From sequence record OR525701.1: DNA of 64,000 bases; one strand, given 5' to 3'. Source of the stretch: Escherichia phage vB-Eco-KMB38. The notes beneath the pieces were generated by a model. It was not told the DNA's origin. It searched no databases and saw only the letters and a list, made by a program, of their open reading frames with translations. Of the stretch, positions 10,993-61,909 are shown piece after piece; the stretch's first letter is position 1; each line of letters starts with the position of its first letter. Position numbers and translations under genes: made by a program.

Positions 10993-11048
10993 TTAAAAAA
11001 GGCCCGACCTTTTTGGAAGGGCCAAAAACCATAGGCAAAAAGGTAACA

Positions 11049-11216
11049 CTATAGTAAAAGTTGGGTTTCGTTCAATTGCTCTTCTGAACTTTCTGAAACC
11101 GGCAATTGTTGGACATAATTATAACAAGGGCCAGGATGTGCCGGACCTTTGTCTGTTTCAACAACCAATGCAGAATCGATTGGAGTTTTACAGACAACAC
11201 AAATCTTATCTGACAT
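11049..11216 (-). CDS. small Cys-rich protein, 55 aa (uvsY.-2-like), not in the ORF track (<60 aa)
   Basis: Translates MSDKICVVCKTPIDSALVVETDKGPAHPGPCYNY...; CxxC...C pattern suggests a zinc ribbon; synteny. Confidence 0.55.
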   Translation of the reverse strand: MSDKICVVCKTPIDSALVVETDKGPAHPGPCYNYVQQLPVSESSEEQLNETQLLL

Positions 11217-11248
11217 GATTGCCTCCTAAGTTGAAATTACATATCTAT

Positions 11249-26214: not shown

Positions 26215-26583
26215 TTATGCAACTTTAATCCAATTGTCTAAATTTAAAACACCTTTGGCTTTCATTTTTTCGATCAGGTTATCTGCTGTAATGCGTCCAT
26301 TTTGATACCATGTAACATCTTCAGAGTAACCAGTTTCTTCGTCAACATATGTTTCTGAACGAATTTTACCGGTAATAATAGTTTTTAATTCGTATGTGTC
26401 ACCTGTGAAAAAGTTTGCTAACACAATTTTCCAAGAGAAATCATCAGAAGGACCTTCAGGGGTCATACAACTTACGATCTCAAATTGCTCTTTGTATAAC
26501 ATCCACTGGAATTCTTTAATTTCGATAGCTTTATAACCGTCGTGGTCTTTACATTTGATGTATGAGTTCAGATTGATTTTCAT
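26215..26583 (-). CDS. hypothetical protein 122 aa, paralog of ORF 25775-26140
   Basis: ATG start with GGAG RBS; own early promoter upstream. Confidence 0.6.
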   Translation of the reverse strand: MKINLNSYIKCKDHDGYKAIEIKEFQWMLYKEQFEIVSCMTPEGPSDDFSWKIVLANFFTGDTYELKTIITGKIRSETYVDEETGYSEDVTWYQNGRITADNLIEKMKAKGVLNLDNWIKVA

Positions 26584-26713: not shown

Positions 26714-26893
26714 TTATGCAACAACCTTTCCAAAACGAGAAGCATCATCTCGAAGAACTGCACGTGCTCTGCGCATGATCTTCTCAACGGTTTGATTAAT
26801 ACGAGAGTTCGACCCACGCTTGTATCCAGCGCGTTTAGAGGTACCATCAACTTTCTTTTCAACTGCTTTCTTTGCTTTAGCTTGTTTTGCCAT
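26714..26893 (-). CDS. small basic protein 59 aa (MAKQAKAKKAVEKK...), not in the ORF track
   Basis: ATG with AAAGAG RBS, ends 1 nt before the terminator hairpin; Lys/Arg-rich. Confidence 0.45.
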   Translation of the reverse strand: MAKQAKAKKAVEKKVDGTSKRAGYKRGSNSRINQTVEKIMRRARAVLRDDASRFGKVVA

Positions 26894-27212
26894 TATAAAT
26901 TCTCTTTAAATGAAAATGCAGGACTTATTGACATTGCCTGCGCAAGCCCTCAAGGGGAACATAGGTTTTGAATATTTACCGACAGGATAACCATAAACCC
27001 GTCATCATACTTATAACTCTTATCTGTTGCACACCGTTAGCTTAAAGGTTCCGGGTTCGATTTCTCGAGGATAAGATATATACTGATGGATATATAGGCC
27101 TTGAGGCGTACTCCCGATCGGCCATCACCTCGGGGTAGCATGCACTTGCCGCTATAAGAATAACATTCAAGAGGTACACCGTAAAAATTGCCGGGGCGAT
27201 ACTTCAAAAACA

Positions 27213-27232
27213 TATCGATTCGTAAATCGATA
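27213..27232 (-). terminator. terminator hairpin downstream of rIII
   Basis: TATCGATT-CGTA-AATCGATA hairpin; rc followed by UUUUU. Confidence 0.55.
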
Positions 27233-27260
27233 ATCAGACAATTTCGACGGCTCCTCGATT

Positions 27261-27509
27261 TTACTTCAGGGTAATAACAAAATGACGAACTGCTTTACGT
27301 GCGGCAGAAGCCAGAGGCTTAGCATATTTCAATTCATCTTTAGCTTCCAGTTCAGCAGCCAGAGTAGCCTGAGCAGGATTCAGATGTTTGAAATATCGCA
27401 GGATTTCCAGTGCTTCGGCTTCAACATCAATTGACGCACCGTAGTTTTCGTGACCGTTATTCCATGCGTTGCGTTGCAGTTCAAGAGCGTGTTGTAATTG
27501 TTTAATCAT
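27261..27509 (-). CDS. rIII: rIII lysis-inhibition accessory protein
   Basis: 82 aa, MIKQLQHALELQRNAWNNGHENYG..., same length and N-terminus as T4 rIII. Confidence 0.9.
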   Translation of the reverse strand: MIKQLQHALELQRNAWNNGHENYGASIDVEAEALEILRYFKHLNPAQATLAAELEAKDELKYAKPLASAARKAVRHFVITLK

Positions 27510-27633: not shown

Positions 27634-27966
27634 TCACTTATAAAGACACGGAATAGCTTTATAGTGGCATGTTACGAATTTCTGTTTAATTTCTTTAGGT
27701 TGCTTAAGACCTAAAGCCACAAATGGATGTGGAACATTTCGAATTTGTCCAACTGGTAGTGGAGTCAAATCACCGACTTCAACAAAACCTTCAGGAACAT
27801 CAGGACCTACAGAATGAACTACACATAGTTCAGGAACTTCACCTTGAACACGTTTGCCAATCACGAGTCCTGATTCGGTAACTTCTTCATCACCAGCTTG
27901 AGCGGGTTCAGAAACCAGAATGACATATTCACCAACAGCACGAATTGGGAGTTGTACTTCAGACAT
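27634..27966 (-). CDS. 31: co-chaperonin gp31 (GroES analogue)
   Basis: 110 aa (T4 gp31 111 aa); synteny rIII-31-cd. Confidence 0.9.
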
Positions 27967-28023: not shown

Positions 28024-28320
28024 TTACATAAGAAGCAAACGTTCTACCGGAGTACCATCAACCGAAATTACCTTATCAAGGCGGAAAGAACGCCACTGAC
28101 CTAACTCGGTATCGAATGCTCGAACTGATTCACGAGGTTCATAACGAACTTCTGTTGCCGGATTGTTATTTTCATATTTGACTTCAAGTTCATCGCGGGA
28201 GGCAAACATCGTACGAACATCACCGTTAGCCTTTTCAAATACAACACAATGAACGCCTACAGACAGAATAGTTTTAATACGTTCACGAAGAACCATAGTT
28301 TCTTGTTCAGTTAAAATCAT
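28024..28320 (-). CDS. hypothetical protein (31.1-like), 98 aa from ATG 28320
   Basis: Track start 28332 is a GTG; the ATG at 28320 overlaps the cd stop. Confidence 0.55.
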   Translation of the reverse strand: MILTEQETMVLRERIKTILSVGVHCVVFEKANGDVRTMFASRDELEVKYENNNPATEVRYEPRESVRAFDTELGQWRSFRLDKVISVDGTPVERLLLM

Positions 28321-28321
28321 A

Positions 28322-28903
28322 TTATTCACCACAAAAGTTTCGGATTTGTTCCCAATTCAGAGAACGAAGATTATTACGAGAGTACTGAATTACTTCAATA
28401 CCAGCTTGTTTTAGAATGTCGGCCCAATTTTCAGGAGATCTGTCATATAATTCTGCGTATACAACCTTTTTAATACCTGACTGCGTGATAGCTTTAGTGC
28501 AATCAGGGCATGGAGAAAGCGTAGTATATAACGTAGCACCTTCAATAGAATTACCTTTACGAGCTGCAAACAAAATTGCATTCAGTTCCGCATGGATTTC
28601 GTTATTAGCAGACCATGCACTATGAGCGGCCCGATGTTCTTTAGCCAAAACAAAATTATCTGCCCGTCCAAATGCTGTAGTGCCTTCTTTATGTCCAGCA
28701 ACGATGACTGGGATTGGTTTATTCTTCAACCAACCATTTTCAGATGCATGTTCACAACAGTTAACACCGCCTGAAGGAGAGCCATTATATCCAGTAGAGA
28801 TAATGCGTCCATCTTTTTCAATGACGGCACCAACTTTCCATGAACAACATTTTGATTCTTGAGAAATCAAATAAGCAATTTGAAGATATGTGCTAGCTTT
28901 CAT
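28322..28903 (-). CDS. cd: dCMP deaminase
   Basis: 193 aa as T4 Cd; zinc-binding motifs HAE and PCxxC (cytidine/deoxycytidylate deaminase fold). Confidence 0.95.
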   Translation of the reverse strand: MKASTYLQIAYLISQESKCCSWKVGAVIEKDGRIISTGYNGSPSGGVNCCEHASENGWLKNKPIPVIVAGHKEGTTAFGRADNFVLAKEHRAAHSAWSANNEIHAELNAILFAARKGNSIEGATLYTTLSPCPDCTKAITQSGIKKVVYAELYDRSPENWADILKQAGIEVIQYSRNNLRSLNWEQIRNFCGE

Positions 28904-60592: not shown

Positions 60593-60596
60593 ATTT

Positions 60597-60737
60597 TCAC
60601 CATATTAATGAACGAATAACCATTATAACATCTGAAATGAAAAGCACTACTTGGATTAGTCCAAACATCACACCGTAGTACAGAACAGTAAGCAACAACA
60701 AGAGCCCGAAGGCTCCTGCTAAGATTTTCTTAATCAT
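60597..60737 (-). CDS. small hydrophobic membrane protein, 46 aa (not in ORF track)
   Basis: MIKKILAGAFGLLLLLTVLYYGVMFGLIQVVLFISDVIMVIRSLIW; start overlaps the upstream stop (TAATG). Confidence 0.4.
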   Translation of the reverse strand: MIKKILAGAFGLLLLLTVLYYGVMFGLIQVVLFISDVIMVIRSLIW

Positions 60738-60883
60738 TACTCGCCTTTTAACACGTTAAAAAGAGCTAAGACCGCTAAGGTACCTTGTGATACGGCCTGT
60801 TGAAATACTGTTGTTTCGCCTGTAACTAAAGTATTAACGAATAAAAACGACCAACACAACAATGCAATAATCCATGCTACCAT
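60737..60883 (-). CDS. small hydrophobic membrane protein, 48 aa (not in ORF track)
   Basis: MVAWIIALLCWSFLFVNTLVTGETTVFQQAVSQGTLAVLALFNVLKGE; position between ndd and gene 52 where T4 has small membrane genes (ac/stp region). Confidence 0.4.
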   Translation of the reverse strand: MVAWIIALLCWSFLFVNTLVTGETTVFQQAVSQGTLAVLALFNVLKGE

Positions 60884-60935
60884 TTTATTACCTCACAAAT
60901 AAATTAAAGGGCCTATTAAGCTAGGCCTATATAAA

Positions 60936-61659: not shown

Positions 61660-61687
61660 TTTGTGTTCCTCGTGTTTTGATAAGACT

Positions 61688-61717
61688 ACTATACCATAAT
61701 CCTACTGTGTTGTAAAC
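61688..61717 (-). promoter_or_regulatory. early promoter GTTTAC ... TATAGT
   Basis: rc GTTTACaacacagtaggattatggTATAGT then AGTCTTATCAAAAC leader. Confidence 0.5.
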
Positions 61718-61909
61718 AATTAAATTACATTAAAATATGTTAAAGCCAACCATGTTCCAGTGAACGAACATGCGATGTAAAAACCAGTATCACAAATTGT
61801 TCTTAGTACAATAAGAAGTGCATTTTTCATAAGTACCTCAATGCAATTGAAAATATTATACAAATCATAGGGATACTAAGCAACCATATTCCGATCCACA
61901 TTTTAGAGC

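Follow-up and report, generated by a model that had tools for sequence, protein, structure and literature searches.

A conserved structured RNA element, very probably functional, between rIII and gene 30.9 of T4-like phages

The region between rIII and gene 30.9 of Escherichia phage vB-Eco-KMB38 raises the question as to what occupies 367 nt (26894-27260) in which no ORF conserved among relatives is found. On the minus strand it is flanked by rIII (27261-27509), encoding an 82-aa product of PHROG 1457 ('lysis inhibition accessory protein'), and by gene 30.9 (26714-26893), encoding a small, Lys/Arg-rich basic protein of 59 aa and unknown function (PHROG 1427). At a 60-aa cut-off the interval 26863-27260 (398 nt) is the longest ORF-free stretch of the window, meaning the whole 64-kb stretch of DNA analysed, as the original prediction had it; the runner-up at 60593-60935 measures 343 nt and contains two abutting minus-strand ORFs of 46 and 48 aa. 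Lowering the cut-off to 50 aa lets mechanical ORFs of 58 aa (27037-27213, minus strand) and 59 aa (26792-26971, plus strand) span it. The central element described below has stops in all six frames and no frame stays open throughout its homologues, the sole semi-open frame through it being interrupted in PS2, EcS1, KMB17 and L026, and the two ORFs are therefore not genes. The earlier statement that the gap holds no convincing ORF is borne out, and the frameshifted protein gene considered at the same time finds no conserved frame in the homologues. In public records the region is either empty or has small 'hypothetical protein' ORFs drawn over the element, and from the sequence comparison we regard those annotated ORFs as spurious.

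The homologous gap spans 244 bp in T4 and 262 bp in HX01, and alignment indicates that the excess of ~150 bp over T4 is an inserted element and that the gap as a whole is a mosaic of RNA-level modules. The element covers 27010-27158 on the minus strand (149 nt including its closing stem P1; core 27018-27151). We put at about 80% the probability of the overall explanation, a gap made up of RNA-level modules with a structured RNA cassette among them; that 27158-27010 encodes a functional minus-strand structured RNA appears very probable from the pattern of substitutions, and the autonomous factor-binding mode specifically, though the one we favour, is somewhat less likely than not.

Single-sequence folding of both strands, one of the checks originally proposed, was uninformative, with both strands folding no more stably than their shuffled versions (z +0.16 and +0.06). 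Thermodynamic folding of one sequence is blind to the element and only comparison with relatives exposed it, this second proposed check showing it to be conserved in ~418 records. RNAalifold reported compensatory changes in 15 of 42 pairs. In a structure-blind MAFFT alignment (A4) 95.8% of cells were paired and 22 of the 50 pairs carried double changes, against 28-42% paired when partners were slid, and 0 of 500 shuffles matched the real value. An alignment of 34 distinct homologues (A5) gave 96.6% paired cells with compensatory changes in 24 of 50 pairs, the slid controls for the structured element reaching 27-42%. The compensatory double substitutions span six helices, including a long-range pseudoknot, and as the homologues compared are closely related (mean column identity 82%) the compensatory events that count as independent are modest in number. 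Within the core there are 31 G-U cells versus 2 A-C cells, and on this basis the RNA is assigned to the minus strand, the sense of rIII and 30.9; the GAAA/GUAA loop of P5 is likewise readable on the minus strand only. Compensatory pairing beyond controls, together with tolerance of G-U and not of A-C, is what is generally looked for in a structured ncRNA. A structured small RNA was among the options first listed for this gap, and covariation, the pseudoknot and strand asymmetry give it strong support for the central 149 nt.

Constraint on the element can also be compared with that on its neighbours. Identity between genera is 84-95% for the core, 72-76% for rIII and 73-83% for 30.9 when nucleotides are compared, and at third codon positions of rIII it falls to ~50%, which shows purifying selection on the element that is stronger than that on the flanking protein genes. 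Unpaired columns are invariant in 32 of 49 cases and ~75 nt of the element are invariant in total. These data bear on whether there is any RNA function at all, the alternatives being a gene remnant, a DNA site (origin, protein-binding or recombination) or a selfish cassette that spread recently, its similarity reflecting recent transfer alone. Presence of the element is polymorphic within genera, its insertion point varies between genera as expected of a cassette, P1 resembles terminal inverted repeats and the element is overlaid with small annotated ORFs in some public records, all of which would suit such an origin. It is nevertheless scarcely credible against compensatory doubles in six helices, the excess of G-U over A-C and invariant loops, and P1 covaries instead of being conserved as sequence. 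The decayed gene remnant suggested at the outset fails in addition on the lack of a homologue-wide open frame and on helix substitutions that are compensatory, and the origin-like region suggested alongside it finds no support in a sequence with no iterons, just two short two-copy direct repeats, and a constraint that takes the form of RNA pairing with G-U tolerance.

A covariance model of the element (R1) returned a single match in the window at 27006-27160 on the minus strand (184 bits, E 2e-40). In the predicted fold, all parts of which are given on the minus strand, P1 closes a perfect four-way junction with zero unpaired linker nucleotides. The 5' strand of P1, CUUAUAGC (27151-27158), pairs with GUUAUAAG (27010-27017); its inner 5-6 pairs are well supported by AU/GC/GU, AU/UA/CG and UA/AU switches and its outer pairs differ in length among genera (5-9 bp). 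The P2 arm (27097-27150) comprises P2a (GGC/GCC, 27148-27150 with 27097-27099), which is invariant and hence a putative pairing, an almost invariant internal loop (AAGUGCAU at 27140-27147 opposite CUCAAG at 27100-27105), P2b (27130-27139 with 27106-27117, with a bulged A and C) and the loop L2 (27118-27129). Compensatory changes are found in 6 of the 10 pairs of P2b, the variants being CCCGA/UCGGG, CCCAA/UUGGG, CUCUA/UAGAG, CGGAU/AUCCG and CCUGA/UCAGG. On inspection by eye the P2 internal loop fitted neither a k-turn nor the 11-nt GAAA receptor. P3 (27077-27096) is a 7-bp hairpin with a 6-nt loop, 99.6% paired with double changes in 2 pairs (UAUAUA/UAUAUA, UAUACA/UGUAUA, UAUUCA/UGAAUA). Its loop L3, CCAUCA (27084-27089), is predicted to kiss UGAUGG in L2 (27122-27127) in a 6-bp pseudoknot, which was left out of the covariance model used to build the alignment; it is paired in 100% of the 34 distinct sequences with 3 of 6 pairs covarying (UGAUGG/CCAUCA, CGAUGG/CCAUCG, CUAUGG/CCAUAG and, in EcS1, CAAUGA/UCAUUG). 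The P4 arm (27018-27076) encloses a three-way junction formed by P4 (27070-27076 with 27018-27024, 3 covarying pairs), P5 (27057-27068) and P6 (27052-27056 with 27031-27036). In P5 3 of 4 pairs covary (UCGA/UCGA, CCGA/UCGG, CUGA/UCAG, CAGA/UCUG) and its GNRA tetraloop, GAAA at 27061-27064, takes the form GAAA or GUAA in the majority of homologues. P6 is invariant, hence a putative pairing, and with the 3' half of its loop L6 (27037-27051) and J6/4 (GCAACA, 27025-27030) makes up 32 consecutive nt that are invariant in all sequences.

The element was found in ~418 of ~993 T4-like phage records that share the rIII–30.9 gap, always as a single copy and located without exception between rIII and 30.9. 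Counts by host (Klebsiella 161 vs 158, Enterobacter 27/27, Escherichia 130/567) indicate that it is fixed in T4-like phages of Klebsiella and Enterobacter and polymorphic in coliphages, and it is missing from T4, T2 and HX01. In IMG/VR it was present at 15 of 40 rIII loci, and all 14 metagenome matches scored as close family members, on phage-sized contigs where informative. Covariance-model matches across the 40 rIII loci and the metagenomes fell at 129-190 bits and were followed by noise with no intermediate relatives, which suggests that the family is narrow. As regards bacterial homologues, a 17-mer scan of 185,579 genomes gave 10 matches, below chance expectation and with none fitting the covariance model, and blastn found nothing matching in 5,426 E. 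coli genomes.

The Rfam covariance search recommended originally matched no family. Among the 4227 models of Rfam 15, which include riboswitches, ribozymes, manA and wcaG, the element reached no family threshold; the whole window had no match at gathering level, cmscan at E<=10 over 1.2 kb returned nothing overlapping 27010-27158, and with a 186-nt slice at the same setting it returned zero matches, ribozyme families included. ARAGORN called 0 tRNA or tmRNA genes in the window. The element is thus uncatalogued in the sense of having no Rfam model, and no description of it was found in the literature on T4-like phages and ncRNA that we covered. A plus-strand tRNA-like reading with GGTTCGATT as T-loop was discarded, this sequence being the complementary strand of hairpin P5, which covaries. 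T4 rnaC and rnaD (species 1 and 2 RNA) of the T-even phages are comparable as small structured non-coding RNAs (119-139 nt) on the gene-sense strand; unlike the element they belong to the tRNA cluster, which in T4 is ~60 kb distant, and rnaC resembles a tRNA, has a GGUUCGAAUCC T-arm and gives a strong fold by itself (z = -4.6). Homology was rejected, as alignment yields scattered identities only and the rnaC fold is different.

The surroundings of the element bear on how it might act. Downstream of it here lies module X (26981-27003, minus strand), a hairpin GACGGG-UUUAUGGUUAU-CCUGUC with a conserved loop and a GUAAAUAUUCAAAACC tail to ~26960, which is present in all genera including T4 with compensatory changes in 3 of 5 predicted pairs. 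Module Y (26947-26957, minus strand) is a mini-hairpin CCC(C)-UUGA-GGG followed by CUUGCG and is kept in all genera. Module Z (26908-26941, minus strand), read from sequence as a hairpin GCAGG-(14 nt)-CCUGC followed by AUUUUCAUUU, comes shortly before the Shine-Dalgarno of 30.9, AAAGAG (26902-26907; AUG 26891-26893), and in other genera its site holds a different hairpin, GGGAGC...GCUCCC followed by AUGUAUUUCUCC. Writing E for the element, the order is E-X-Y here, X-E-Y in Roth17, PEi26 and PS2, and Y-E-X in EcS1 and KMB17; X is upstream of the element in PWKp16 as well, and Y precedes it in EcS1 and KMB17 and follows it in the others. The spacing from the rIII stop to the start of the element is 5-27 nt for Karamvirus, EcS1 and KMB17 (5 nt in Karamvirus) and 109-119 nt for Klebsiella phages and the present phage, and the distance of the element to the 30.9 AUG ranges over 73-162 nt. 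This variation among genera in module order and in spacing to rIII and 30.9 supports autonomy.

An unlikely alternative is that the element is a cis-regulatory leader of 30.9 and the downstream 30.x genes, either a riboswitch aptamer or a protein-binding operator, whose fold state would alter read-through into or translation of 30.9, with gp30.9 possibly the binder. Its anatomy is aptamer-like, with a P1-closed multi-helix junction, invariant junction and loop nucleotides and loop-loop kissing, it is always upstream of 30.9 in the same sense, the product of 30.9 is small and Lys/Arg-rich, and the stretch from the element to the Shine-Dalgarno of 30.9 holds hairpin Z and a U-rich tract. However, P1 does not adjoin a terminator-like hairpin with U-run or a Shine-Dalgarno-sequestering helix in any genus; it is followed by module X, module Y or a GNRA hairpin depending on the genus, none of which has a U-run, and no terminator was called. 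A stretch of 73-162 nt with one to three conserved modules separates the element from the start of 30.9, module X changes sides between genera, and X, Y, Z and 30.9 are all conserved in the element-free phages T4 and HX01. The lack of an Rfam match also tells against a leader, as does the lack of bacterial members in the genomes searched, a distribution that metabolite riboswitches would not usually show. Lysine and purine riboswitch aptamers share with the element the P1-closed junction, side-by-side arms, a loop-loop contact of ~6 bp and invariant unpaired nucleotides, and differ from it in having an Rfam class and an adjacent expression platform and in not being confined to phages. The conserved P1-closed architecture of a riboswitch is thus found here and a contiguous platform directly upstream of 30.9 is not. 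Expression platforms of riboswitches are normally variable, and for this reason the missing platform is only moderate evidence against cis-regulation. We favour an autonomous factor-binding domain over a riboswitch.

The position of the element exactly at the intercistronic boundary, 3'-UTR-like in Karamvirus, also invites an explanation in terms of RNA processing or stability, in which a self-cleaving ribozyme or nuclease target would split rIII from 30.9 mRNA or, alternatively, a nuclease-resistant block would guard the 3' end of rIII or the 5' end of 30.9. Such functions are independent of exact neighbours. Four-way junctions with tertiary loop contacts occur in natural hairpin, hammerhead and twister-sister ribozymes, and the element has the same arrangement; with the hairpin and twister-sister classes it shares contacts between adjacent arms and a phage and metagenome habitat. 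We nevertheless consider this quite unlikely. The known catalytic core motifs and conserved catalytic loops are missing, no ribozyme family was found in the 186-nt search and no Rfam model of these ribozymes matches. Simple hairpins are enough against E. coli 3' exonucleases, so that ~75 invariant nt and a pseudoknot exceed the needs of an exonuclease block, and a separate hairpin, the probable terminator, is already present 3' of rIII here.

Processive antitermination by an RNA of the HK022 put or EAR type, in which the nascent fold would bind RNA polymerase and promote read-through into 30.9-30.x, would account for cis action that tolerates variable position, and in every case at least one hairpin (Y, Z or Z') comes after the element and before 30.9. 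The extreme conservation of the sequence would also suit a target such as host RNA polymerase, which is itself conserved across the Enterobacteriaceae. Like HK022 putL and putR the element is a self-contained folded RNA of a phage transcript with narrow distribution and tolerance of spacing. The put sites are, however, two simple stem-loops of ~70 nt with no similarity to it in sequence or structure, it is equally unlike EAR and matches no Rfam model, and the downstream hairpins are unconvincing as terminators. In addition T4, which lacks the element, expresses 30.9 as far as a paper cited in PMC9409239 indicates. Antitermination is therefore a very improbable account.

The reading that we prefer is that the cassette at 27158-27010 encodes an independently folding RNA of ~150 nt, which would be transcribed within read-through transcripts from rIII to 30.9 and whose tertiary fold would form a self-contained domain binding a conserved partner, be it a host or phage protein, an RNA or a small ligand. 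Its role would then be that of a stable non-coding RNA or of an RNA decoy, accessory in function and perhaps host-dependent, and action through an adjacent expression platform seems improbable. For a decoy, conceivable targets are conserved enterobacterial factors such as RNA polymerase, the ribosome or S1, a nuclease, an immune sensor or a second messenger. That it represents a new functional class of phage RNA, whether a ribozyme or ligand sensor with an unseen fold or a decoy or sponge employed by some T4-like phages only, is a doubtful proposition, and a decoy role, if true, would explain both fixation in Klebsiella and Enterobacter phages and dispensability in T4.

The T-even-type phages are among the most heavily studied genomes, yet this RNA of ~150 nt is uncatalogued, an oversight that is likely because neither T4 nor T2, the laboratory models, carries it; transcript studies, too, have been made on T4. 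The element is present in >400 sequenced phages, many of them of Klebsiella, Enterobacter and E. coli and isolated for therapy, and its complexity (two junctions, a pseudoknot formed by kissing loops, a GNRA tetraloop and ~75 invariant nt) is of the order usually seen in RNAs that perform a defined biochemical task. The covariance model and coordinates permit mis-annotations to be corrected.

Upstream of the element a hairpin UAUCGAUU-UACG-AAUCGAUA followed by UGUUUUUG (27205-27232, minus strand; inverted repeat I3, arms 27213-27220/27225-27232) is probably the intrinsic terminator of rIII. Its T4 counterpart, UAAUGAUU-UGCG-AAUCAUUA with UAGUUUU, differs by two compensatory changes; with 2 G-C pairs in an 8-bp stem the hairpin is below the 3 G-C minimum of the terminator scan and was not called. 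The ATCGAT-based hairpin singled out originally is this structure, and it is present as described and lies outside the RNA element. Next to it the sequence TTTACG-N17-TATTCT (27157-27185, minus strand) is a weakly indicated candidate for an early promoter of the PeSL type, agreeing at 5/6 + 5/6 positions with the T4/PST consensus TTTACW-N17-TAYWAT (PMC4122927) and giving no call in a sigma-70 scan; HX01 has TACTAT as -10 at this site. Since the -10 overlaps the 5' strand of P1, transcripts from this candidate would be without P1. As a promoter directly serving the element it was rejected, the match being weak, P1 being truncated and the site not being conserved in other genera. The element here is downstream of the probable rIII terminator and the possible early promoter overlaps P1, both of which run against the proposed scheme, and for these reasons abundant transcripts may lack the intact fold.

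The PeSL cassettes of T4-type phages are promoter/stem-loop units of ~50-100 bp, with a promoter and simple hairpin, that flank ORFans (Arbiol 2010, PMC2839356; Comeau 2014, PMC4122927). The terminator hairpin with TTTACG-N17-TATTCT resembles the T4/PST version of these, and like PeSLs the element is a small intergenic module, shuffled by recombination in plastic regions of T4-type genomes. It differs in being a 150-nt multi-junction RNA with a pseudoknot, without its own promoter or terminator-type stem-loop, and by analogy it behaves as the cargo and not the linker of a shuffled cassette. As the element shows, the shuffled intergenic cassettes of T4-type phages can hold RNA cargo besides ORFans.

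The cues first noticed in the gap were mostly the wrong ones for the element. The palindromes are there, including GCATGC at 27138-27143 and CCGATCGG at 27114-27121, and 6-nt palindromes are enriched in the gap (14 vs 5.9 expected, p ~0.001), an excess that stems mostly from the TATATA stem of P3. CCGATCGG is private to the present phage lineage, relatives carrying CCGATTGG or CTAATCGG, and by this comparison is a chance or lineage-private feature and not a meaningful cue. The 8-nt long-range complement exists at 26948-26955 and 27099-27106, both positions having been reported off by one, and is not significant, with 2 inverted 8-mer pairs observed versus 1.2 in shuffles (p ~0.3). It was rejected as a long-range helix or switch, being unconserved with uncompensated CCUUAUGG or CCCUUAGGGG variants in relatives; one of its arms is module Y. 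Directly 3' of the rIII stop a putative small hairpin read from the sequence, UCGA-GGAGCCG-UCGA (27240-27258, minus strand), is kept in T4 and HX01 and carries in its loop GGAG, the cleavage motif of RegB.

The gap between rIII and 30.9 (26894-27260, 367 nt) lies in a T4-like (Straboviridae) genome that shares 99.9% identity over the region with Escherichia phage PTK and 99.6% with phage AlbertHofmann. All genes around it are on the minus strand: the dCMP deaminase gene cd (28322-28903), 31.1 (28024-28332), gp31 (27634-27966) and rIII (27261-27509, PHROG 1457) on one side, and on the other the genes for gp30.9, a basic protein of 59 aa (26714-26893, PHROG 1427), and gp30.8 (26215-26583, Pfam Phage_30_8). 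The original prediction had singled out the gap as the largest ORF-free interval of the window, with no convincing ORF, and both statements hold: at a 60-aa cut-off it ranks first, and none of the mechanical ORFs of 45-59 aa that traverse it is conserved. The second-ranked interval, 60593-60935, contains two abutting minus-strand ORFs of 46 and 48 aa. Neither this interval nor two more that are poor in ORFs, 61660-61909 and 10993-11248, yielded an Rfam family; the last shows an apparent switch of gene orientation and only ORFs of ≤55 aa.

Comparison of the gap with ~993 phage records showed that its outer thirds (26894-~27000 and ~27160-27260) are common to T4, T2 and HX01, and that its middle (~27003-27150) is absent from all three. 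The comparative alignment suggested with the prediction found this middle kept in relatives, with compensatory changes; it is 90-98% identical in Klebsiella, Enterobacter, Citrobacter, Salmonella, Serratia and Edwardsiella phages, in which the flanking intergenic DNA does not align. The homologous gap measures 244 bp in T4 and 262 bp in HX01, and where T4 joins TGAATGTGA directly to ATGATGACGGG the window has ~150 additional bases, occupied by a structured RNA element (27010-27158, minus strand; core 27018-27151). At its exact position the element-less Mosigvirus HX01 (locus L001, ~1905-1950; columns 197-345 of alignment A1) and its relatives carry an unrelated ~46-nt filler, TACTATCATGCGTCAGAAAAGTGTTATCTGTGTAAGTCTTGGTGGT, and T4 has nothing, so no fewer than two distinct insertions or replacements have struck the site.

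Compensatory changes were already visible by eye in an initial alignment of five genomes, and RNAalifold, run on 17 minus-strand sequences, predicted 42 pairs, with double changes at 15. We lengthened the closing stem of this model, added a pseudoknot between two loops and tested the structure twice. In a structure-blind MAFFT alignment of 20 distinct sequences 95.8% of cells were paired (slid controls 28-42%), with double changes at 22 of 50 pairs; in an alignment of 34 distinct sequences based on a covariance model (CM) the figures were 96.6% (27-42%) and 24 of 50, and in each test 0 of 500 shuffles reached the observed level, the independent substitution events being few because the family is shallow. 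The CM did not include the pseudoknot, so this alignment was not fitted to it; the pseudoknot is nevertheless 100% paired there, in four variants (UGAUGG/CCAUCA, CGAUGG/CCAUCG, CUAUGG/CCAUAG and CAAUGA/UCAUUG). Core G-U cells number 31 versus 2 A-C cells and the loop of helix P5 reads GAAA or GUAA on the minus strand only, so the RNA runs in the same sense as the neighbouring genes. At the level of aligned sequences a conserved, complex, gene-sense RNA fold is shown, and that the element has no RNA function at all is hardly credible.

Read 5' to 3' on the minus strand, the element is closed by P1 (27158-27151/27017-27010), which meets P2, P3 and P4 in a four-helix junction with zero unpaired nucleotides. 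P2 consists of P2a (27150-48/27099-97), an internal loop (AAGUGCAU, 27147-40, opposite CUCAAG, 27105-00), P2b (27139-30/27117-06, with a bulged A and C) and loop L2 (27129-18), which includes one pseudoknot strand (27127-22). The second strand is the loop (27089-84) of P3 (27096-90/27083-77). Within P4 (27076-70/27024-18) lie P5 (27068-57, GAAA loop 27064-61), P6 (27056-52/27036-31) with its loop L6 (27051-37), and the junction strand J6/4 (GCAACA, 27030-25). P2a, P6, the 3' half of L6 and J6/4 are invariant, including 32 consecutive positions, and are plainly under the tightest constraint; since both helices are invariant, the pairing of P2a and P6 is predicted only. Of the 49 core columns without a pair, 32 are invariant.

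The gap as observed is borne out, and the interpretation in the original prediction is supported in part: its option of a structured small RNA is correct, but on grounds other than those offered for it. The palindromes it named are present, with CCGATCGG limited to the phage's own lineage. The 8-nt long-range complement exists one base away from where it had been placed (26948-26955/27099-27106); it is not conserved, and such complements occur at chance frequency (2 observed versus 1.2 expected).

Between genera the core is 84-95% identical at the nucleotide level (outlier EcS1, 71%), compared with 72-76% for rIII, whose third codon positions are ~50% identical, and 73-83% for 30.9. A CM search of the window returned a single copy (27006-27160, minus strand, 184 bits). 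In the phage collection 418 records match the element and ~993 the gap, the respective counts being 161 and 158 for Klebsiella, 27 and 27 for Enterobacter, 130 and 567 for Escherichia and 27 and 78 for Shigella phages. It is present at 15 of 40 IMG/VR rIII loci, and 14 metagenome matches are all close family members, on phage-sized contigs where length was informative. A 17-mer scan of 185,579 bacterial genomes gave 10 matches, none agreeing with the CM, and none of 5,426 E. coli genomes gave a match in blastn. In all annotated contexts inspected the element lies between rIII and 30.9. It is single-copy, fixed in several genera, independent of its immediate neighbours and, as T4 lives without it, accessory.

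No Rfam 15 family matches the element, nor did one at E≤10 when a 186-nt slice was searched. The element is neither a tRNA nor a tmRNA and is unrelated to T4 rnaC and rnaD. Full-text literature searches by gene name, sequence string and topic found no description of it, and public records leave the region unannotated or cover it with spurious ORFs. Klebsiella phage annotations (Roth17, L003 1506-1631; OL362041, NC_055831, OR352949) lay 'hypothetical protein' ORFs across it, and some records call a small spurious gap ORF '1,4-alpha-glucan (glycogen) branching enzyme'; such labels are probably erroneous. No reading frame of the element stays open in PS2, EcS1, KMB17 and locus L026. On the comparative evidence it is a new family within a known kind, the conserved structured phage ncRNAs.

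In architecture the element resembles junction-plus-kissing-loop aptamers, among them the lysine and purine riboswitches, but it lacks an adjacent expression platform, no terminator-like or Shine-Dalgarno-sequestering helix being contiguous with P1 in any genus. A role as cis-regulator or riboswitch of 30.9 we consider unlikely. The distance from the rIII stop to the element is 5-27 nt in some genera and 109-119 nt in others, and from its end to the 30.9 AUG 73-162 nt; its behaviour is that of an autonomous cassette. Its genomic behaviour resembles that of the cargo of shuffling promoter/stem-loop (PeSL) cassettes (Arbiol, Comeau; PMC2839356, PMC4122927), although their cargo is an ORFan and here it is RNA. 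Our leading, tentative reading (probability about 0.35-0.4) is an autonomous factor-binding ncRNA or decoy, which would use its tertiary fold to engage a conserved partner; a processing, ribozyme or stability element is somewhat less likely even than a regulator of 30.9. The element would be transcribed inside an rIII-to-30.9 read-through RNA, rIII having early, middle and late promoters according to literature cited in PMC9409239. A put-like antitermination RNA is improbable.

Further conserved RNA-like modules, also present in T4, occupy the gap (all minus strand). Directly 3' of the rIII stop a hairpin (UCGA-GGAGCCG-UCGA, 27240-27258), conserved in T4 and HX01 as well, presents GGAG, the motif of the RegB endoribonuclease. 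A recent paper reports that RIII inhibits the activation of RegB via S1 (PMC9409239). The ATCGAT hairpin of the prediction is an AT-rich UNCG hairpin with a U-run (27232-27205) and two compensatory changes relative to T4; it is probably the rIII terminator, and would then lie upstream of the element in the window's lineage. A candidate promoter, TTTACG-N17-TATTCT (27157-27185), matches the T4/PST PeSL early-promoter consensus (PMC4122927), and HX01 has a perfect TACTAT -10 there. In the window's lineage the -10 shares bases with the P1 5' strand, so transcripts from this possible promoter would carry a P1-less element.

Module X (27003-26981, tail to ~26960; 3 of 5 predicted pairs covary) is a hairpin with a conserved 11-13 nt loop (UUUAUGGUUAU or GUUGUUGGUUAUC), with UAUGAUG on its 5' side and GU(U)AAAUA...CAAAACC on its 3' side; it is kept in every T4-like genus examined, T4 included (L024, within 1542-1785), upstream or downstream of the element according to genus. 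Module Y (26957-26947) is a mini-hairpin, CCC(C)-UUGA-GGG, with CUUG(C/A)G behind it. It is conserved from genus to genus, and its place relative to the element varies too: in EcS1 and KMB17 it immediately follows the stop codon of rIII. It bears a faint likeness to a MotA box (GCTTG), with no conserved -10 element. Module Z (26941-26908), GCAGG-(14 nt)-CCUGC then U-rich AUUUUCAUUU, directly precedes the 30.9 Shine-Dalgarno; in other genera its place is taken by another hairpin, GGGAGC...GCUCCC then AUGUAUUUCUCC, and the hairpin before 30.9 may be an attenuator or translational control structure for that gene. The order is rIII-terminator-element-X-Y-Z-30.9 in the window, rIII-X-element-Y-Z'-30.9 in Roth17, PEi26 and PS2, and rIII-Y-element-X-...-30.9 in EcS1 and KMB17. 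A GNRA hairpin, UUGCC-GNRA-GGCAA (AAUGUUGCC-GNRA-GGCAAGUUAA), precedes the element in PG7 (L004) and follows it in PWKp16 and L017; by analogy with the mini-circles proposed for PeSLs, repeats of this kind could allow recombination to excise or insert the element. The 30 nt that directly precede the element in phages of Klebsiella and Edwardsiella (L003, L022, L021) include a block, GCUACCAAAGUGCAGCUAG, similar to the 5' segment of the element itself, GCAAGUGCAUGCUAC; this block may have arisen by partial duplication or may serve as an alternative pairing partner.
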